A stretch of DNA of 64,000 nt, taken from positions 45,521 through 109,520 of the IMG/VR virus record IMGVR_UViG_3300005617_000004. One strand, given 5' to 3'. The stretch is from a virus. A program made the position numbers and the translations under genes. Of this stretch, positions 31,817 to 60,594 are shown one piece after another. The notes beneath the pieces were generated by a model. It was given only the letters and a program-made list of their open reading frames with translations, was not told the origin of the DNA and did no database searches. Each line of letters starts with the position of its first letter. The first letter of the stretch is position 1.

Positions 31817-33610
31817 TTACGCAGCCCGTAGGAGGTTGAGGTAGTAGTCTTTTCCTTCCTTGTGGACGAACTGAGCCGTGGAGTCCTTCTGCAGGACGTT
31901 CTCGTAGACCGCCTTGTCAATTCCGTTCTCCGTAAGAAGATACGTATAAGAACACGGGTGGTTCTGGCCGATACGATGGATACGGTCCTGGCTCTGTTTC
32001 CACTCGATATAGTTGTAACTTAGCCCGCAGTAGATGTTATCGTAACATGGCACACCCGACTCGTTGCCGATGAGCGTCTCACCTTCGCTCATGCCCAGCT
32101 GACGTACGAAAACGGTGATGCTGGGGTCGTGGTTCCAGTTGTGCGCGTCGGCGTCACGCTGCCGCTGGGAGACGTCGCCGTCGACGTGCACGGCCTTGAT
32201 GCCGCGCGCCCTCAGCCCCGCGATCACCTGCGCGATCTCGTACTTGAAGTAGCACCAGACGATCACCTTGCGGCCTGACAGCGTGTCGGTCAGCATCTCG
32301 AACAGGGTGTCGGTCTTGACGTTGTTGAAGGGCCGCCCCTGCCGGTCGTCCGCCAGCACAAAACCCTGGCATACCTGCAACAGCTTCATCATGCGGGCGC
32401 TGGCCTGCTCGACCGTCACCTCGGCGTCCTGGATGTAGGCCACCGCTTCGTTCTTCAGGGTGTTGTAGTACCGCTCCTGGTCTGCCGTCATCTCCAGGTA
32501 CAGCGGGGTGTGGGTCTTCTTCGGCAGGAACGGCAGCACCTCTTCCTTGGTGACGAAGTGGGTGGACTCCGCCATCGCTGCGGCAATGGCTTGAGCAGCG
32601 CCTTCGTTCGGGATATTCTTGACGAATTGCCCGCGGTGCTCGGCGCGGAAAAACTTTTCGAGGAATGCCGTCTTGCTGGCGCCGAGCGCTTTGCCGCCGT
32701 CCAGGATCAGCAGCGGGTAGAAGATGCTCTCCAGGCTGTTGGCGATCGGGGTGCCGGACAGGCCGAGCTTCTTCTTGGCGCGCGACGCCAAGGTCAGGGA
32801 GAACTGCGTACGGTTGGTGTTGTTCGACAGCTTGTGGCACTCGTCGAAAATGATCCCTCCATAGCGGTTGTGGGCCACGAACTTGAGGCCGTCGTAATTG
32901 CAGACGTGGTAGTGGGTCGGTGTCGCGGCGAGGCGCTTCTTCTTGGTCGGCTCGCCGCGGATCAGGATCGACGACGCATTCTGCCAGTGCGACAACTCGA
33001 ACTGCCACGTCTTCATCACCGACTTCGGGCACACGACCAGCACGCCGCCTTGGACGCCCCACTGCCCGTCGTGCACCGCCGGCGACATGGGCTCGATGAG
33101 CCCGTTGCGGTACCAGCCGCCTGACGCATCGGTAGCGCCGCGGCTTTTGCCGACACCGGGGTCTTCCGCCATCAGCAGTCCACTGACGCGCTGCGACCAG
33201 TGGTAGTCGACCTGCTGGTGGTACAGCGGCGGGCACGGCACCTCGACGCCTTCTTTGATCTGCGTCATGCGCGTGACGTACGCGTCGAGCGGCGGCTTGT
33301 CACGGATGATCCGCTCCATCGCGAGCCGCACCTGATGCTCGGCGTCGGACTGCTTGAGATGCGCCTCGGCGAACTCCTTGAGGCCGTCCCGCCACTCGAT
33401 GGTCTCGCCGGTTTCGCGGGCTACCTTAGCAAGAGCTACCAACGCCGCCGGCGTGGTCGGGAAGTCCCAGGCAGACTTCTCGCCTACCCACCGAGCGGGC
33501 GAACCGACGCGCTGCAGTTTGTACTTCATCGTCTCCGAATAGAGCGACTGCTCGACGCGGAAGTGCACCGCCTTGGAGCGGGTGATGTGCTGATACGCGA
33601 TGAGGGTCAC
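31817..33610 (-). CDS. SNF2-family (SF2) helicase/ATPase
   Basis: EDPGVGKS (Walker A), VVCPKS, DECH, LSGTPI, QSQDRIHRIGQ; GTG start at 33610. Confidence 0.9.
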   Translation of the reverse strand: MTLIAYQHITRSKAVHFRVEQSLYSETMKYKLQRVGSPARWVGEKSAWDFPTTPAALVALAKVARETGETIEWRDGLKEFAEAHLKQSDAEHQVRLAMERIIRDKPPLDAYVTRMTQIKEGVEVPCPPLYHQQVDYHWSQRVSGLLMAEDPGVGKSRGATDASGGWYRNGLIEPMSPAVHDGQWGVQGGVLVVCPKSVMKTWQFELSHWQNASSILIRGEPTKKKRLAATPTHYHVCNYDGLKFVAHNRYGGIIFDECHKLSNNTNRTQFSLTLASRAKKKLGLSGTPIANSLESIFYPLLILDGGKALGASKTAFLEKFFRAEHRGQFVKNIPNEGAAQAIAAAMAESTHFVTKEEVLPFLPKKTHTPLYLEMTADQERYYNTLKNEAVAYIQDAEVTVEQASARMMKLLQVCQGFVLADDRQGRPFNNVKTDTLFEMLTDTLSGRKVIVWCYFKYEIAQVIAGLRARGIKAVHVDGDVSQRQRDADAHNWNHDPSITVFVRQLGMSEGETLIGNESGVPCYDNIYCGLSYNYIEWKQSQDRIHRIGQNHPCSYTYLLTENGIDKAVYENVLQKDSTAQFVHKEGKDYYLNLLRAA

Positions 33611-33843
33611 AGGAGTTTCGTCGCGATGTCGACGGCCGCGGCGTGAATGACAGCCGCTTCGCTGTCCCGCCGGCGCTTCTCCGCAGGCGAGATCACCCCG
33701 CACTCTGGGCAGAACCGCACCTCGTTGCCGTACTCGCCATTTCCGACGGTAAACTCGCCGGTTTTCTCGTCTTCCGTGCATTCTTCGATCGCACGCTGGA
33801 AGCCGCGCGGCTGCGGGAGGGTCATCGAACAGTGATGGCTCAT
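33607..33843 (-). CDS. Small CxxC protein
   Basis: RFCPECG. Confidence 0.5.
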   Translation of the reverse strand: MSHHCSMTLPQPRGFQRAIEECTEDEKTGEFTVGNGEYGNEVRFCPECGVISPAEKRRRDSEAAVIHAAAVDIATKLL

Positions 33844-44489: not shown

Positions 44490-45571
44490 GGTTACTTCTT
44501 TCCGAGCACTTGCCGCTCGTAGATGCTGTCGACTGTGTCTGGCTCGATCGTCGTGCTGAGCAAGGGGCCCAGCTGGATACACGACATGGCGTGGCCCATC
44601 GACCCATACGACTTCTCGACGACACTGATGCTCGGATGGCTCTCGAGATAATTGTCAGCGTAGTCGGCCAGATGCTGCGCCATCTCCGGCTTCAGGTCGC
44701 CACGCTGGATAGCGCGGGCAATCCCGTTCGGGTCAACCTTGTAGCCGACCTGCAGTCCGTCCGGGCCGTAGACCGCGCAGCCGAGATTGGTGCACTCACC
44801 GACGCGCCGGTGGTTGACGGCGCGGAGGATGAGGTATTTGCCCCAGATGCGGTCGGTCATCGTACCCTCTTGAGCGTGTTGCGCCATATCCAGAAGTGGA
44901 ACACGACCTTCTGGCCGATCGCCAGCGAGTCAACGATCTCCATAGCCTTGCGGGCGTGCACCAGAGACACCCCGCGATGGTGTTTGTGCTCCAGCGCTCG
45001 GTTCCTCTGCACGAACCGGTCCAGGCTCTGCAGGCGCGACCACCTACCTTCCTCGGAGTCGAACACCTTGAAGGCGCGGTGCTTACCGGTCTGGCGCTTG
45101 AACCGGCCGTGCGGGACGGCGGTGAAGAAGCCGAACAGGCCGTTGTCGTAGTGGCCGACAGTCTTCAGCAGGCGCATGCCGGGCAGGAAGGGCTTGCGGT
45201 ACGAGGCGCGGCGCTTGTGGACCATCTCGGTGAGGAGCACGTCGAACTCGGTCTCCGATATGGCCGGCAGCGGGTTCGGCTGCTCGGCGGCGATGGAACC
45301 ATCGGGGTTGATAACGACGTCGGTCATTCGAGATCCTTCGCCGCCTTCTCCAGCCGCTTCGCGCGATTGATGGTCGCCTTCGAGCACGGCTCGATCCACG
45401 ACTGCGCGTGCGCGTGGCTCGCGTTCATGGCGCGCAGCTGCTTGGCGGTGTTCTTGAGGAGACAGATCAGCTTGGCGTGGGGGTTGACGTGCTTGTAGAC
45501 CGGCGGCCCGGGGTACAGCAGACTCGCGAAGTTCGTTGGTGCGTATCTGCGGTGTGACATGGCGAGCTCCA

Positions 45572-53446: not shown

Positions 53447-53962
53447 TCATTTGCGGAGTGCCTCTCGGAGACGCTGCGCGGTCTTAGTAGTCACATGGAA
53501 CTCCGCACAGCCGCCCGGGTCGCTCGTCTGATACCGCGTCACCTGATGGACGGGTTTCTCCGGCGACACCACCTCTCGGCCCATCAGCCGATACCGCTCT
53601 TCGGTTATCAGCTTGAGCGCCCCGACGAAGCCGATGCGCTCGATCTTCCGCCGTTTTCCAGGGCGTACAGCGTTTGACGCCCAACCCGCGCCTCCGGCAA
53701 TCGCCTGCACGATGTCAAGCGTGTCGCCGTCCTTGAAGACCGTCTTCATGCCGTCGAGGAACCGGATGTCTTCTTCGCCGACGAACAGGTTGAACCAGCG
53801 GCGCGGCTTGGCGCCGTCGAGCAGCTTGTCCTTGATGCCGGGGTAGTGGCGGTCGAGGTAGGCGATGGCGTCTTCGACGGAGTCGGCGTAGAGGTGGAGG
53901 ACGGGCTGGTCGGCGACGAGAGGTCGCAGGGTAGAGGGGATGGAGACGGTGATGTAGTTCAT
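53447..53962 (-). CDS. MoaD/ThiS ubiquitin-like protein with an 80-aa extension after the di-Gly
   Basis: VSIPSTLR..NLFVGEEDIRFLDG..KDGDTLDIVQAIAGG, then the frame continues. Confidence 0.8.
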   Translation of the reverse strand: MNYITVSIPSTLRPLVADQPVLHLYADSVEDAIAYLDRHYPGIKDKLLDGAKPRRWFNLFVGEEDIRFLDGMKTVFKDGDTLDIVQAIAGGAGWASNAVRPGKRRKIERIGFVGALKLITEERYRLMGREVVSPEKPVHQVTRYQTSDPGGCAEFHVTTKTAQRLREALRK

Positions 53963-54630
53963 CGCGGCTCCTCCGGGAAGAATCGCTTGAATACCCCGTC
54001 CGGATTATCGACCAAGTCCTGCGTGAACATCCAAGTATGGAGCCACGTACCGTCCATCAACGGCAAATGTGACAAGAAAGGCAGTTCGTTGCGATTACCG
54101 TTTTTATCGCGGAACGAGAACCCGTCGCGCTTTATCATAGCCTCCAGCTTCAGCACGTCGATGTCGTAGAGCGCGATCTTGTGAGCGGCACAAAACCGCC
54201 GTTTTTGCGGGGTTATTGGCGTCGTAGCGGTAAGCTCAAACACCGCTGTCAATCCAAGATTACTCTCGCAGGCGACGTCAAATATGAACATGGGCTTGAG
54301 GTTGACCTCCAACGCGGCCTCGGGAGTTGGATAGCACCACGACTCATTTTCGTGCAACCAGTTCTGGGCGCCGAACTTTATCCCTAGCTGCGTCCACGAA
54401 AACGTACGACCCTTCGCCTTATGTGGACCCGGGTAGACATACTCAACCACAACGTGCCCGTTGGCGTGGTCGCTGCGAATGGGGCCATAGCCGGTCCAGA
54501 GCCGTTTGATAACACTCTGCACGACCAACTTGGCGTCGAAGTGCGCGTCGGACTCGCGGTTTCTGAACGCGGTCTTCTGGCGGTACTCCGCCGCAGACAT
54601 TCCATAGGGGTAGTCGCCATCATCGTTCAT
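53959..54630 (-). CDS. CoiA-like PD-(D/E)XK nuclease
   Basis: ESDAHFDAK..E..FDVAC..VFELTAT; visibly more AT-rich than flanks. Confidence 0.45.
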   Translation of the reverse strand: MNDDGDYPYGMSAAEYRQKTAFRNRESDAHFDAKLVVQSVIKRLWTGYGPIRSDHANGHVVVEYVYPGPHKAKGRTFSWTQLGIKFGAQNWLHENESWCYPTPEAALEVNLKPMFIFDVACESNLGLTAVFELTATTPITPQKRRFCAAHKIALYDIDVLKLEAMIKRDGFSFRDKNGNRNELPFLSHLPLMDGTWLHTWMFTQDLVDNPDGVFKRFFPEEPR

Positions 54631-57600
54631 TTTCCATACCTCCTGGACATGATTTCTGGTTTGCTGAACACAGGCATTCCTGGCGCCCACGACGGTGCGA
54701 TTCGCATCTCGCGCTCCAGCCAGTCACGCCAAGCGATACCGTGCTGCTCGGGAACTTCCAGCACGACTTCGTCGTGCACGTGGAAAGCGATCGGCGCTCC
54801 GGCGCGATCTACCCGCAGCATGACGTCGGCGAGCAGGTCGCGGCAGAAGCCCTGTACCGCGTTCTCGTAAATCTTACCGCCGTAGGTGCGACGCTGCAGA
54901 ACCTTGCCGTTGACCGCGTTGTCATAGACGATCACCTTTCGCCAGTCGGCATAGGGGTCGCGCTCCATGCGCGCGTTCCAATAGGTGATGGGTCGCCCGC
55001 TAGGCAGAATCATCTCCACACGATCCGGGTGCTTGACGAAAGTCAGCTTCCCGCATTGGCGCACCGTCGTGCGGTTGTTCTCCAACACGAGCTTGAACAT
55101 CTCTTCACAGGCCCACCAAGACTTCTGCACCTTCTGGTACTTCGACCGGTATCCGTCGATGATGGTCTGAGGGTCGATCCCAAGCCCTACAAGGTCAACG
55201 CCGAGCGGGCCGGCCATCCGAAGCACAGCGTTTGCGCCGCCGCCAAAACCCGCGCTAAGGATTCCAATCTTACCCCCTCCGCGCTCGCGCTTGGTAACGG
55301 TCAGGGGGTTCTTGCCGAAGATGGTGCCGGCCAGAATCTGGTAGGTGTCAGGAACGTTCGGGTCTTTGCCTTCGGGGTGAGCTTCATCGGCAGCATCCTT
55401 CCGGCGATAGTCGATGAGACCATCCTCGTCGTCGGCCAGCCACAGTACGCCGCGCGCTTCTACCGAAGCGAAGTCACCAACCACAAACACGTTGCCCGGC
55501 GCCGGCACAATGATGCCGCGAATCAGGGACCCGAGCAGCTCGTAAGGCGGCTGGTCCTTGCACAGCTCAACAAACCGGGCCCGGTCCTTCTCTTCAATGG
55601 CGGCCGCAGCCGCGGCGAGGTCAAACTCCTCGTTGGGCCTCTTCATGTTCTGAACCTGGATCTGATACCCGCTCCACCGACCTGTTGACGCACCACAGTA
55701 CCGCAGCTGCCCCTTAGCCCGTCCGTCGGCCGACACGCATTTCAACGCTTTCTCGACCTTGGCCAACGCGGCTCGCGACACGGTCAGCCGGCACTTGATG
55801 GCCTCTACGACTTCGTGTGAGATGGGGCCGACCTGCTCGGGGTCTGTCTTCCGTTCCTCCTGCTCCTCGTACATCTCCACGACGGCCCGCAGCGAAGTCA
55901 CGGTCGTATCTTCGAGTTGCGCGTGCGGGGGTAGGTTCTGGTTCAGCTGCTCGCGCAAGAACTCTACGCGGGTGAGGTCGGCCCGGGTGATCGCGCCGCC
56001 CGTTACCTTCTCAATCTGCGCGCCGGCCAGGGCCTTGAACTCATCGTCGAAGTCCCGCAGCGTCGCGGCGAACTCTTTATCGATGCAGATACCCCAGTAG
56101 TTGATCTTGTGGTGCAGGTCGCACACCTCCTGCTCCCACGCCGGGCTGGCGTCGAGGCCGAACTTCTGCGCGATCCAGTAGCTGATGTCGGTGTCGCGGA
56201 AGTTGTAGCTCAAGATGCTCTGAATCATGAAGTCTGTGAGCTCCGGCAGCTCGCCCGTCTTGGGGTCGGGGCCCCATATCTGGCTGATGAACCGCTTGCC
56301 GGCCACGTCCTTGCCTAGGCCGAACAGCGTCAACCCAGCCTCGTCGGCGCCGGCGGCCAGCCCCTTGGACAAGGTGCGGTCCATCGTGTCGCGCCACGCG
56401 ATCGGCTCCGGCAGCTTCAAGGTGCGGGTCCAGATGGCGCGCTCGAACCCGACGTTATGTGCTACGATCACACACCCAGACGGGTCGGTCACCATGTCGT
56501 GCAAGAAGTCAATGCCGTGCTCATACTCGACGCCCTCCGGCATCGTCAGGTTGTACTTGCTCGTGGTCCAGTAGATCCGACGTCCCTCTACGATGATGGC
56601 GGCGCACATGACCTTGGTGGAGGCATCCTCCGCGTACACGTAGCTGCCATGCTGGGGTAGGTTGCAAGCTGACTGGGTCTCGAAGTCCAAGTACACAATC
56701 AGCGGGTCGGTGTACTCGTCGGGGTCCAGCACGAGGGGCTCCTGGTCGCCGAGTGCGGTGAGTTCCTGAAGCGCTTCGACAGCGACTACGGCCGCCCCCT
56801 CCGCGGAGGTTTCGACGGGCGGCCGTGGCTTCGGGGGCCACGTGTTGAACAGCTCCGCGTTGACGCTGCGGGTGCGTGACCGTGCGCGGCCTCCCTCCGC
56901 CATCCGAACGTAGGAGCGTGCGCCCCAGTTCCGGATCTCGAACTCGACGGTCTTTATACCGTCCTTGAACGCGTACATTTTGGGCAGGTGCAACTGGAAC
57001 GGGTCCAACACGTGCTTCAAGCTCTCCGCGGCGTGCAGCCTGTCTTCGTCGCGCTGGCCACTGCTGCCCTTACCCAGGGACTCGACCAGCAGCTGGCACG
57101 TAGCGCCGACGGTGCCGGCCTTGTTCCAGTCGATGAAGCGGGCACCGCGGCCGACGCGCTTCTGGGTCGTCGCATCCTCCTCGGGGCTGCCGGCGATACG
57201 CTCGATCAGCTCGACCACCAAATCGCGGATGGCTTCGTGGGTATCGGTTCTGTCGACCTCCTCCTCAAGCCTCGGGATCTTCAGCATCTGCATCTTGACG
57301 GCGAACGACGTCTCGCAGTCGGCCGGGAAATACTCGTCTACGACCCAGGAGTGCAGGGCCTGCGCTGCCTGGGTGAGCTCCGGCGACGACATCCACCACT
57401 TCTCGACCATATGGCCGATCTTCTCCCAGCTGGTGGTCAACCGGGTCTCTAGGCGCAGCAGGTGCACGCGCCGACCAAACTGCTGATCATGCGAGAAGAA
57501 CGCAGGGATACGCCAGTCGGTGAATATCACCGCATTATTGAACGGGGGGCTCTCCGCGCCCTTGTAGTTCTTATAGTGGGTGAACGCGGCGCGGTTCAGC

Positions 57601-59525
57601 CGGGTAGCGAATGTGTGCAAATACTGGTAGTCGGCGGGCTTCTTGGCGAAGTCGTCGAACACCAAGAGCCGCGACAGCCGCATCGCGTCGCCGACCGACT
57701 GGTTCAGCCGGTCCTCCTGGATGCCGGACATGTCCTGAAACAGCTCGCCATACATCTCGGTCACCACGCGGATGGTGGTGGTCTTGGCGGCTTCGGTCGG
57801 GCCCGTGGCCCACAGCATCGGAGGCGGCCCTTCGCCGGACTCGGCGCAGCCCATAGCGATGATCAGAGCCTTGAGGTACAAAACGTTGATTCCGGGAAAA
57901 TGTGCTTCAATCGCCGCCTCTGCGCTGGCCAGCGGCATGCGGTGTTTAGGGGCCACGTAGGTAACCCGGTCTTGCGTGGTACGTACTCTCGGCTTACACC
58001 GGATGATGCCGTTGTTGAACGTATCACGATTGTGGTGTAGAAATATGGGCTCGAACAAGTACGGCTGGATCGGGATCCAGCCGGGCAGTCGGCCATTGTT
58101 GGTGTGCGCCGTCACATACGCCTGCATCGGCTTGAGCGCGTCTTCCTCTTTATCGTAGTGCTGGCATGATGGAAGGATGGCCACGTCCTTGCTGGCCAGC
58201 CGCTGAGCCTCCAACAGCGTGTCCTTGTGCAGCCACTGGCTCTCACCGCGGACGAAAAAGAAGGGGTGGAACGCGGCCTTGATACGCTTGACGCTATCCT
58301 TTCCGGCGTCGATGGACTCCTTATGCGTGGCCTTCAGCTGCGCCGAGTACACGTGCTCCCGTAGTGAGGCGGGTAGGTTAGGAAACAGCTCCGCGAACAG
58401 GTAGCCGACATGCTCCGCATGAACAATGTTCTCAAACGCGAGGCGAATCGGCGCCAACGCGTAGCTGTTTTCGAGCGCCAACCCGTGCTTGCGCCGCAGG
58501 CTGCCCCACGTCATAAGGCCGCGTCCGAGGCGCCCATGGCACGAATGGCAATACAAGCCCTGCTTGCTGTCGACGAACACCGGGGTGGCACTGGTCGACA
58601 CGTGGTCCGGGTCTATGGAGCAGTATGAATGGGGGAGCCGCTCTCCGCCTTTGAGCCCGAGCAGTTCCATGATCTCGGCAACCTCTTCCTCGGTCGCCTC
58701 GGCTTTGGAGAACCGCTCCAGCACCTTGAAGTTCTCATCGGGGAGGCTCTCAACTACACGTCCGCAGCGCTGACCTTTCTGGGTAGAGCCCGGGTGCCGT
58801 GTACGGTTGATCACTTCGACCGTGCCGCGAGCCCGCAGAACCGGAATCAAAGTGAGAAGCTGTGCAGCAGCGGCAGCGGCGAGTTCCTGCGCGGTGTAGC
58901 GGTCGTTCGGCGTGGAGGTGTAGATCGCCTTGATGCCGCCGCCCTGCGTGCGCCACCAGCACACAGGTGCGGGTGCGAGATTGCGGCCGAGGTCGTCGAG
59001 GCTCTCGACCGTCATCCGCTCCGGCGCTTCGTGGTCGTGGAAGTCTACGTCCAAGCAGGCCAGGAACGGCAGCGTGTCGGCATCCCATTCCAGTAGTGTG
59101 TCGGGTGCTTCGATCTGCTTGCGCAAGATTGCCGTCATGGCGGCAGCGGTGTTGATCTCTTCGTAGACCAGCGCCTCTTTTTTCGTCTGCCGAATAGTCC
59201 GCTGGCTCAGCTGATACGGTGGTGTGGGCTTCCAGGTTTTTTCGGCTGGCGCAGCTGTTTCCGCCTTCTTCTGCTCGGCGATCTCGGCCAGCCAGCCTTT
59301 GTACAGACGGGTCAAGTGTAGAAACTCGCCGGGCCCTATATTGATCTCGCGCTCGAGCTGGCGCGCGGCGGCGCCGCCGCCCATGTTGAACGCGGAGAAG
59401 AAACGCTCCTGCCCTTGGGAGTCTTGGTAGTCGATCCGGACGAAATCAGGAAAGCCTTTGTCTGCGGGGCTGAGTTGCAGCGTCCGACCTCCGGTGAGGT
59501 CGACAATCAAAGGCTCGATCAGCAT
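54627..59525 (-). CDS. Fusion of AEP-like primase, Zn finger, SF3 helicase, 3'-5' exonuclease and family A DNA polymerase
   Basis: LDVDFH, RTQGGGIK, RHPGS, CHSC; GPTEAAKTT, LLVFDDF, RRV; LDFETQS, AHNVGFER; TGRWSG, DFASVEAR, ENAVQ, HVHDE. Confidence 0.85.
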   Translation of the reverse strand: MLIEPLIVDLTGGRTLQLSPADKGFPDFVRIDYQDSQGQERFFSAFNMGGGAAARQLEREINIGPGEFLHLTRLYKGWLAEIAEQKKAETAAPAEKTWKPTPPYQLSQRTIRQTKKEALVYEEINTAAAMTAILRKQIEAPDTLLEWDADTLPFLACLDVDFHDHEAPERMTVESLDDLGRNLAPAPVCWWRTQGGGIKAIYTSTPNDRYTAQELAAAAAAQLLTLIPVLRARGTVEVINRTRHPGSTQKGQRCGRVVESLPDENFKVLERFSKAEATEEEVAEIMELLGLKGGERLPHSYCSIDPDHVSTSATPVFVDSKQGLYCHSCHGRLGRGLMTWGSLRRKHGLALENSYALAPIRLAFENIVHAEHVGYLFAELFPNLPASLREHVYSAQLKATHKESIDAGKDSVKRIKAAFHPFFFVRGESQWLHKDTLLEAQRLASKDVAILPSCQHYDKEEDALKPMQAYVTAHTNNGRLPGWIPIQPYLFEPIFLHHNRDTFNNGIIRCKPRVRTTQDRVTYVAPKHRMPLASAEAAIEAHFPGINVLYLKALIIAMGCAESGEGPPPMLWATGPTEAAKTTTIRVVTEMYGELFQDMSGIQEDRLNQSVGDAMRLSRLLVFDDFAKKPADYQYLHTFATRLNRAAFTHYKNYKGAESPPFNNAVIFTDWRIPAFFSHDQQFGRRVHLLRLETRLTTSWEKIGHMVEKWWMSSPELTQAAQALHSWVVDEYFPADCETSFAVKMQMLKIPRLEEEVDRTDTHEAIRDLVVELIERIAGSPEEDATTQKRVGRGARFIDWNKAGTVGATCQLLVESLGKGSSGQRDEDRLHAAESLKHVLDPFQLHLPKMYAFKDGIKTVEFEIRNWGARSYVRMAEGGRARSRTRSVNAELFNTWPPKPRPPVETSAEGAAVVAVEALQELTALGDQEPLVLDPDEYTDPLIVYLDFETQSACNLPQHGSYVYAEDASTKVMCAAIIVEGRRIYWTTSKYNLTMPEGVEYEHGIDFLHDMVTDPSGCVIVAHNVGFERAIWTRTLKLPEPIAWRDTMDRTLSKGLAAGADEAGLTLFGLGKDVAGKRFISQIWGPDPKTGELPELTDFMIQSILSYNFRDTDISYWIAQKFGLDASPAWEQEVCDLHHKINYWGICIDKEFAATLRDFDDEFKALAGAQIEKVTGGAITRADLTRVEFLREQLNQNLPPHAQLEDTTVTSLRAVVEMYEEQEERKTDPEQVGPISHEVVEAIKCRLTVSRAALAKVEKALKCVSADGRAKGQLRYCGASTGRWSGYQIQVQNMKRPNEEFDLAAAAAAIEEKDRARFVELCKDQPPYELLGSLIRGIIVPAPGNVFVVGDFASVEARGVLWLADDEDGLIDYRRKDAADEAHPEGKDPNVPDTYQILAGTIFGKNPLTVTKRERGGGKIGILSAGFGGGANAVLRMAGPLGVDLVGLGIDPQTIIDGYRSKYQKVQKSWWACEEMFKLVLENNRTTVRQCGKLTFVKHPDRVEMILPSGRPITYWNARMERDPYADWRKVIVYDNAVNGKVLQRRTYGGKIYENAVQGFCRDLLADVMLRVDRAGAPIAFHVHDEVVLEVPEQHGIAWRDWLEREMRIAPSWAPGMPVFSKPEIMSRRYGK

Positions 59526-59549
59526 GGAGTCTTCCCTGAGAGGCGACTC

Positions 59550-59634
59550 GGCTTCCGAAGCACCACCCCACCAGGGTCGGTTGCCGCCGACCTACCCCGG
59601 GAAGGGAGGGCGGTGTGGCAGTGCTTCGGAAGCC
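59550..59634 (-). ncRNA. Structured 5' leader of the replicase gene
   Basis: 14-bp perfect stem GGCTTCCGAAGCAC / GTGCTTCGGAAGCC enclosing a GGTCGG/CCGACC hairpin. Confidence 0.55.
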
Positions 59635-59666
59635 GAATGGCTGGTAGGCAGTACCAGCGTGGTCGC

Positions 59667-59699: not shown

Positions 59700-60240
59700 C
59701 GGCCGGGGGTGGACCGGTGACTCTAGGTACCGGGCTGGAGAGTTGCAAGGTTGTGTTTGTCTTGGTGCGGTCTGTTTCGTCCTACCAGAGTGTGGTAAGC
59801 GCCGATTGTGCTAGCTCTCGGCTATCGGGGCTGCTTTGTAGTCTACGGCAGTCTATTTTCGACTACTCAATACCTAAGCCCCGGTGTAACAAGCACCTGA
59901 TAGCGACTGCTACAGCGCACAATTGGCACTTGTGCAGTCAAGTGGTTTATTCACAGGATGTTATCCTCGACTGCTACAATACTACTAAAACGATTCCTGA
60001 GTTTCCCTCTGCTGGGGGTTGTATGTATCGGTTCAATCGTTACGGTGCCGCGCTTTCGCTGCCGCCTCCACCTCCCCACAAGTAACAATAGGGGGTCATT
60101 TTGTAGCGGTCGCACCTAACCCCTTTTCGCGACTGCGCGTAGGTCAGTTGTGCAGTCGTTGTGCGAACCCTGTGCAGTCGCACCCATACCGACAACCCGC
60201 TTGCAATCTACTGTAGACTGACTTAGACTGGCGGAAAATC
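59700..60240. other. Putative replication origin / divergent control region
   Basis: Largest non-coding, AT-enriched stretch; repeated GACTGC/GCAGTC; lies between divergent blocks. Confidence 0.55.
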
Positions 60241-60594
60241 ATGCCCACCACGAAACAAGTCCCCATCCAGTTCACCAAAGACCAGTTGACCCGCCTGCGG
60301 TCACTCTCGTCCGAGTCCGGCCGATCCATCGCCGCCCTCGTCCGCGACGCCGTCGACCGCATGCTGGCCCCTTCAGCAGGCGTTCCTGCCGAAGCCCTGT
60401 GGCTGATCCTGCGCGACCCGGCGCACTGGCAGACCTTCAAGGAGATCGCCCTCCAGCACGAGGCCGCCAACGCGCCCCCGCCAGCGCCCACGACGTGGCG
60501 ACACCGGAAGTCTGATGATGTTCCGCCACGCCCCGCACGTGTTGTACCGCCGCCTCCGCCCGAAGGCCCCATGCCCTGCCCGTTCACGTCATGA
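60241..60594 (+). CDS. Ribbon-helix-helix (CopG-like) regulator
   Basis: KQVPIQFTKDQLTRLRSLSSESGRSIAALVRDAVDRML. Confidence 0.8.
   Translation: MPTTKQVPIQFTKDQLTRLRSLSSESGRSIAALVRDAVDRMLAPSAGVPAEALWLILRDPAHWQTFKEIALQHEAANAPPPAPTTWRHRKSDDVPPRPARVVPPPPPEGPMPCPFTS

Follow-up and report, generated by a model that had tools for sequence, protein, structure and literature searches.

The 64,000-nucleotide window analysed here (positions 45,521 to 109,520 of IMG/VR virus record IMGVR_UViG_3300005617_000004) carries, at 54627-59525 (-), a single open reading frame (ORF) of 1632 codons plus a stop that translates without interruption. The encoded protein combines, from N to C terminus, an archaeo-eukaryotic-type primase (AEP), a zinc site, a superfamily 3 (SF3) helicase, a 3'-5' exonuclease and a family A DNA polymerase (PolA). 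The source is a complete virus record of 109,520 bp with direct terminal repeats at its ends. We consider it likely that the gene encodes the virus's replicase and that it is an end-to-end fusion of neighbouring primase-helicase and proofreading family A polymerase genes. An earlier note on this DNA, made without database searches, had proposed both the 1632-aa ORF and this order of domains. The ORF is real, the order is borne out, and each of the listed motifs was found where the note had placed it. As to domain identity, the SF3 and PolA assignments are well supported by fold and profile, and the AEP assignment moderately.

Reality of the fused gene

A word-indexed search of JGI, ENA, Logan and NCBI assemblies recovered at least 12 independent metagenomic relatives that are full-length and collinear with the replicase (1611-1797 aa, 44-80% identity), some of them on contigs of 97-110 kb. 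These fused relatives align end to end, and variation in length and sequence is found only at residues ~898-938 (alignment A1). In three other IMG/VR contigs, residues 1-1632 are covered by single unbroken tblastn segments. For P0017 and P0058, no match was found in IMG/VR. Since full-length fused relatives occur in four data sources and the frame is open in three further viral contigs, an assembly artefact is excluded for practical purposes. Continuity across 56700-56900, about which the earlier note had been cautious, is likewise upheld by the open junction in these three contigs (tblastn) and in 12 fused relatives.

SF3 helicase

Residues ~360-760 are a D5-type SF3 helicase, an assignment well supported by both fold and profile. 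We built an AlphaFold2 model of the N-terminal primase-helicase module (N-module) on an alignment of 98 homologues, and the conservation counts given throughout are from 98 diverse homologues of this module. The model reached a predicted local distance difference test (pLDDT) score of 90.8 and a predicted template modelling (pTM) score of 0.79. Its best Foldseek matches in the PDB are African swine fever virus (ASFV) PrimPol, monkeypox virus (MPXV) E5 / vaccinia D5, SaPI5 Pri-Rep and NrS-1 CTR, followed by PriRep1, adeno-associated virus (AAV) Rep40 and papillomavirus E1, all of which are AEP-SF3 proteins or SF3 helicases. In VIA-align, residues ~366-760 matched SaPI5 (7ola) with Z 13.4 over 252 aa, and the helicase part matched D5 (8hwh; Z 12.8, 284 aa) and ASFV PrimPol (8ww6; Z 12.8, 232 aa). 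The D5-type matches extend over 232-290 residues, whereas matches to generic AAA+ proteins are shorter (Z 10-11.7, about 145 aa). The assignment is further supported by the ESM look-alikes of residues 360-900, which fall in the DUF5906, VapE and Pox_D5 clusters (score 0.97), and by a profile that matches P-loop ATPases in the PDB.

The ATPase core (residues ~535-700, 57426..57923 (-)), recognised by motifs, fold and profile, is preceded by a helical bridge or D5N-like collar (residues ~358-530, 57936..58454 (-)) that aligns with D5N of vaccinia D5, MPXV E5 and SaPI5 Pri-Rep. Within the core lie Walker A, GPTEAAKTT (residues 575-583, 57777-57803 (-)); Walker B, VFDD (residues 622-625, 57642-57668 (-)), which fits the pattern hhhh[DN][ED] at residues 620-625; motif C, FTD (residues 668-670, 57513-57530 (-)); and an arginine pair, R685/R686 (57462-57485 (-)). 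G575, K581, Q682, R685 and R686 are invariant (98 of 98), and T/S582 is kept in 96. The position of R685/R686 shortly past motif C suggests that the pair acts as the arginine finger. Walker A and motif C had been described as deviant. Both are present as described, but they are ordinary variants within the family: position 580 of Walker A is Gly in 53 sequences and Ala in 37, and position 670 of motif C, where the usual SF3 form is T/S-N and the replicase has T669-D670, is Asp in 72, Glu in 12 and Asn in 12.

The C-terminal domain of the N-module (residues ~705-897, 56835..57413 (-)) consists of helices and a beta-hairpin in the AlphaFold2 model and corresponds in part to the C-terminal region of ASFV PrimPol (model 487-857). 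By analogy with D5/P4-alpha (PMC4889955), it may be an origin-binding winged helix.

Probable AEP-type primase domain and zinc site

Residues ~100-265 (58731..59228 (-)) very likely belong to the AEP superfamily as a divergent member, with moderate support from motifs, fold search and ESM look-alikes. Motif I is LDVDFHD (residues 158-164, 59034-59054 (-)), motif II is QGGGIKAIY with Lys199 (residues 194-202, 58920-58946 (-)), motif III is VE with E237 (58812-58826 (-)) and motif IV is TRHP (as TRHPGS; residues 242-247, 58785-58802 (-)). The acidic triad is nearly universal among the homologues, with D159 in 97 of 98, D161 in 96 and E237 as Glu or Asp in 95. Arg243, six residues past motif III and kept in 85, has a position that fits the Arg which has been reported as 'motif IV' from numerous AEPs (PMC5862659). 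The Lys of motif II, in place of the His of the usual sGxGxH motif, had been singled out as an anomaly. It is indeed there, but the family motif is GGG-x-[RHK] and position 199 is Arg in 42, His in 39 and Lys in 15 homologues, so that Lys is an ordinary family variant. A basic residue occupies the position in 96 of the 98, which is what one would expect if it contacts a phosphate. The predicted catalytic machinery of the primase thus looks intact rather than degenerate, and the suggestion that some domains are partly inactive and repurposed is not supported, the catalytic positions being conserved throughout the family.

Residues 1-360, modelled separately, gave a pLDDT of 92.7. The best Foldseek match of the primase part in the PDB is the CAPP Prim-Pol, a weak match (E 6.6e-3, prob 0.87), followed by S-2L PrimPol, RepB' and NrS-1, and in BFVD it is matched best by VirE-like proteins, primases and PrimPols. 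Both sub-modules are covered in VIA-align by LigD-pol, Prim-PolC and CAPP alone (130-150 residues, Z 5.9-6.2), with 136-150 residues and Z 6.0-6.2 for LigD-pol and Prim-PolC. The ESM look-alikes of residues 95-360 are the RepB_primase, BT4734-like_N, Prim-Pol and AEP-TOTE clusters, all of which are AEP families. Of the AEP/SF3 similarity that had been claimed for the N-terminal half, the SF3 part is borne out by the fold (Z 12.8-13.4) and the AEP part is moderately supported.

The domain is flanked on both sides. Downstream, a zinc-binding module (residues ~295-346, 58488..58643 (-)) is formed by H299, C302, C326 and C329, with the His present in 97 of 98 homologues and the three Cys in all 98. 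This agrees with the C/H..CxxC finger that had been noticed, with H299/C302 and C326/C329 as its conserved residues, while H308, which had been counted in, is not conserved. Upstream, the N-terminal domain (residues 1-95, 59241..59525 (-)) is a four-stranded sheet with a long helix (AlphaFold2 pLDDT about 90) for which the structure search gave no informative fold match; at a guess, it might serve in DNA binding or oligomerisation.

Exonuclease and family A polymerase

The C-terminal half (residues ~939-1632) is, as judged from its motifs, an ordinary proofreading family A polymerase in which all catalytic motifs are present. The 3'-5' exonuclease (residues ~939-1165, 56031..56711 (-)) is placed by its motifs and by a phrog_17 match over residues 940-1632. 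Exo I, DFET (residues 947-950, 56673-56690 (-)), Exo II, HNVGFE (56430-56459 (-)), and Exo III, YNFRD (56187-56207 (-)), are conserved among relatives (alignments A1 and A5). They follow the general patterns DxE, Nx2-3(F/Y)D and Yx3D, apart from a Glu for the final Asp of Exo II. The polymerase proper (residues ~1166-1632, 54630..56030 (-)) is identified by Pfam, a PDB profile search and tblastn, and its motifs A (DFASVEAR, 55449-55478 (-)), B (RGGGKIGILSAGFG, 55236-55283 (-)) and C (HVHDE, residues 1582-1586, 54765-54782 (-)) follow the patterns D..E, R..K.. and HDE and are invariant in A5. Pfam DNA_pol_A (PF00476) matches with 41.4 bits against a cut-off of 34.3 (E 1.2e-10), phrog_17 'DNA polymerase' with 5.4e-68, and tblastn found 1693 matches to cultured-phage PolA at about 29% identity. 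Searched against the PDB, the profile A5, made from seven relatives, gave values between 1e-16 and 3e-20 for Pol I, Taq and Klenow (1e-17 to 3e-20 for Pol I / Taq; 2.7e-20 for Pol I) and of 8e-14 for Prex. Pol I/Taq and Prex score similarly, so that no PolA subfamily, cluster #8 or other, was assigned. In motif B, what we take to be the positions of Klenow F762 and Y766 are occupied by Leu and Phe, respectively; the relatives keep the Leu and have F or Y at the other position.

Helicase and exonuclease are joined by a flexible linker of roughly 40 residues (~898-938, 56712..56834 (-)), with a pLDDT of 43-66 and a variable sequence in A1. No other stretch of the gene is as GC-rich as the linker DNA (71.5%), and this DNA contains one perfect 10-nt inverted repeat at 56788-56826 (ACGGCCGCCC / GGGCGGCCGT, spacing 19 nt), which at 71% GC is probably without meaning. 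No iterons were found in the linker-coding DNA, and with this and its GC content an origin inside it was rejected for this genome.

An uncatalogued family with fused and split members

An exhaustive phmmer search places the N-module in a family of 479 representative clusters at 50% identity, 389 of them below 1e-10. Most members are stand-alone proteins of 800-950 aa, and they come from metagenomes only. Neither 50,697 phage records nor 72,556 plasmid records gave a tblastn match to the N-module, and a pattern scan of 185,579 species genomes returned one short contig of a metagenome-assembled genome. Residues 1-940, searched whole and in three pieces, have no Pfam or PHROG match at E<=10 other than a chance-level one to T4_RIIA1 (E 0.19); ten diverse relatives gave sub-threshold Prim-Pol (E 0.03-0.07) and AAA matches only, and phmmer with the whole protein found no match in the PDB. 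Members of the family now go unannotated or bear only the label 'DNA polymerase'.

Of the representatives, 153 reach 700 aa or more, and 22 of these (14%) are fused. A scan of nine distant or truncated fused forms found PolA in every one. In three unfused relatives the same two genes lie close together: the PolA gene is on the same strand and downstream in all three, immediately after the primase-helicase gene in L006 and L012 and at a distance of 4 kb in L009. The PolA of the split relatives is of the same type, with 28% identity to that of the replicase. A FastTree phylogeny of the N-module requires six changes to account for the fused state, a number to be read as 'several' because branch support is approximate. 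The fusion of this gene pair has thus occurred, or been reversed, repeatedly. About six fusion or fission events within one family argue, by the 'Rosetta stone' reasoning, that PolA acts in physical association with this primase-helicase.

The contig that carries L009, JGI24126J20157_1000003 (305,596 bp), contains the same locus three times (L009, L010 and L013) at an exact spacing of 90,794 bp, and it is therefore probably a concatemer of a virus genome of roughly 90.8 kb. The replication module there runs in the order SF2 helicase, PD-(D/E)XK nuclease, unfused primase-helicase, a thymidylate-synthase-like gene and PolA (1011 aa).

Role in the genome and proposed mechanism

The genome contains no second homologue of the replicase and no match to PolB, DnaB (DnaB_C) or Toprim (Toprim_4). 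The only other helicase found is an SF2 protein of 654 aa at 31817-33781 (-) (Helicase_C, 27.5 bits). As the searches turned up no further polymerase and no DnaB-type helicase or Toprim primase in the genome, the protein is the sole replicase candidate and very probably the virus's replicase. Upstream of the gene, at 59800-60250, the GC content falls to 48.5-50% (59800-60100 being intergenic) and GACTGC/GCAGTC repeats occur in both orientations; this region is a better candidate for an origin than the linker DNA.

Analogy with D5, ASFV C962R and T7 gp4/gp5 suggests how the protein might work. The SF3 part would form a hexameric ring, as in other D5-type proteins, that would be loaded at the origin, for which the low-GC repeats immediately upstream of the gene are the probable site, and would travel 3'->5' along the leading-strand template. 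AEP domains borne on the ring would prime the displaced strand, and the tethered PolA domains, proofreading as they go, would elongate these primers as well as the leading strand. The host or unrecognised viral genes would supply primer removal, ligation and the coating of single-stranded DNA.

Several points weigh against this interpretation. The AEP assignment is built on individually weak signals (Foldseek E 6.6e-3; VIA Z about 6), motif II has Lys in place of His, and in a wide VIA-align search with residues 1-360 generic RRM/ferredoxin folds equal AEPs on the core alone, so that a fold score by itself is no proof of an AEP. At the place of the Klenow Asp, Exo II carries a Glu that all relatives share. 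The hexamer, the polarity of the helicase and the origin are proposed by analogy, and no OB-fold single-stranded-DNA-binding protein (SSB), flap nuclease or ATP ligase was recognised in the genome. This last finding means that the protein is not a complete replisome alone. The idea of a one-polypeptide replisome, raised in the earlier note, is accordingly best retained in the narrower form of a single-chain replicase, which fits best, and given up as a complete replisome. Bolder still would be a self-sufficient one-chain engine, whose hexamer recognises the origin, unwinds, primes with the Arg, His or Lys of motif II and copies both strands with proofreading, the uncatalogued family being the standard replicase of a clade of uncultured 90-110-kb viruses, possibly tailless and of the jelly-roll type. 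We offer this extension only tentatively and think it rather doubtful as a whole.

Alternative interpretations

The protein could be a polyprotein precursor whose linker is cut after translation, releasing a primase-helicase and a separate proofreading polymerase that act as they do in the split relatives. PfPREX undergoes proteolytic processing (PMC7689252), the linker is disordered and variable, and most members of the family are split. However, no conserved cleavage-type motif was seen in the linker, and separate translation of the second half finds no start there either: a GGAGG is present, yet no in-frame ATG, GTG or TTG follows it, and hence there is no internal start codon with a Shine-Dalgarno sequence. 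The retention of the fusion across 44-80% identity further suggests that the tether itself is under selection. We therefore regard processing as unlikely.

The AEP-like domain might instead be origin-binding or structural, with priming left to the host, to transcription or to recombination. The loss of the canonical motif II His, the lack of a sequence-profile match of this protein to any AEP family and fold scores no higher than background would all be in keeping with such a role. Residues of the kind conserved here, on the other hand, are usually lost from inactivated domains, and the family has kept the acidic triad (95-97 of 98), the motif IV Arg (85 of 98) and a basic residue for phosphate contact at position 199 (96 of 98). 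A domain that does not prime is, in our estimate, distinctly improbable.

Helicase-PolA fusions such as Pol theta are known in repair (PMC10201439), and a Pol theta-like helicase-polymerase or PrimPol acting in repair or damage tolerance rather than replication has to be considered. This is very improbable for a protein that is, in a complete genome of 109.5 kb, the one DNA polymerase found and likewise the one primase and replicative-type helicase, that has intact exonuclease motifs and whose SF3-primase combination is replicative in viral fusions (PMC4889955). Finally, that two genes, adjacent or overlapping in split relatives, were joined by an assembly or sequencing error is effectively refuted by the fused relatives from four data sources, at least 12 of them full-length, and by the open junction in three other viral contigs. 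The reading of the gene as a fused single-chain replicase is retained.

Surroundings of the gene

The replicase gene is neighboured by genes for an N6/N4 DNA methylase, a metallophosphoesterase and a ThiS-like protein. The last, a ThiS/MoaD-like ubiquitin-fold ORF at 53447-53962 (-) (Pfam ThiS, 4e-7), lies within a replication-gene neighbourhood. An ORF of 243 aa at 53959-54690 (-) overlaps the 3' end of the replicase gene by 64 nt if its earliest start is used; its identity in relative L002 is 77%, and neither Pfam nor PHROG gave it a match. The 5' leader of the replicase gene contains, at 59543-59641, an imperfect 30-nt inverted repeat (83% complementary, spacing 39 nt), flanked by a promoter-like site (59694-59667, minus strand) on one side and the ATG on the other.

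Comparison with known fusions

The logic and order of the fusion are already known from other phages, and what differs is the primase-helicase family, which is absent from Pfam, PHROGs, cultured phages and plasmids. Two phage helicase-primase-polymerase fusions have been described, 1706 gp55 (AEP + SF3 + PolB) and phiAsp2 Pas55 (DnaG + SF3 + PolA) (Kazlauskas et al., 2016, PMC4889955), along with the 1606-aa OS3173 polyprotein, in which a DUF927 helicase/primase region is joined to exonuclease and PolA and which is fused or split in related viruses (Palmer et al., 2020, PMC7689252). AEP-PolA fusions are also found in bacteria, in addition to PREX (Czernecki et al., 2023, PMC10201439).

OS3173 ORF36 of the Pyrovirus group (Thermocrinis Octopus Spring virus) resembles the replicase in combining a primase and/or SF3-like (DUF927) helicase with a 3'-5' exonuclease and PolA in one ORF of near-equal size. 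Likewise, its helicase part is fused or a separate gene among relatives, and an SF2 helicase and a PD-(D/E)XK nuclease are found in the replication module, as in L009. In contrast to OS3173, the N-module has neither DUF927 nor any other Pfam match (residues 1-940, E<=10), the virus has 110 kb where the Pyrovirus members are tailed phages of 37-42 kb, and its PolA is no nearer to Prex/Aquificae-type enzymes than to Pol I. The Pas55 protein from Actinoplanes phage phiAsp2 shares the primase-helicase-PolA order in one chain, with PolA C-terminal, but its primase is Toprim-like (Pfam DUF3854) rather than AEP, and BLASTP similarity is confined to the PolA motifs (E 4e-4). By its published description, gp55 of Lactococcus phage 1706 also fuses AEP and SF3 helicase to a replicative polymerase (PMC4889955), which is however of family B.

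Apicoplast PREX, which the earlier note had named as an analogue built from other primase and helicase folds, does share the functional order of primase, helicase, exonuclease and PolA (PMC10201439, PMC7689252). Its primase is of the Toprim kind and its helicase DnaB-like, and this genome has a match to neither. The comparison was incomplete, however, since OS3173, Pas55 and gp55 are closer phage precedents and AEP-PolA fusions exist as well. Among the latter, the 'Hot Spring 1' PolA cluster #8 (Verrucomicrobia, Planctomycetota, Nitrospirae) places an AEP before an exonuclease-proficient PolA; no SF3 helicase is mentioned for these proteins (PMC10201439).

The best structural matches to residues ~100-860 are vaccinia D5 / MPXV E5, ASFV C962R PrimPol and SaPI5 Pri-Rep. 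These D5-type proteins share the order AEP, (Zn), D5N collar, SF3 core and C-terminal domain, at an identity of 9-13%, and differ in having no family A polymerase attached. The replicase is a natural example of a rare combination, a single chain that unites a primase and a helicase with a proofreading exonuclease and a polymerase, and it could be a candidate enzyme for primer-free isothermal DNA amplification. In eukaryotic viruses, PolA-SF3 and AEP-SF3 fusions lack the exonuclease, and mutual compensation of helicase and exonuclease has been suggested (PMC11071308); unlike those surveyed fusions, the replicase described here keeps both.

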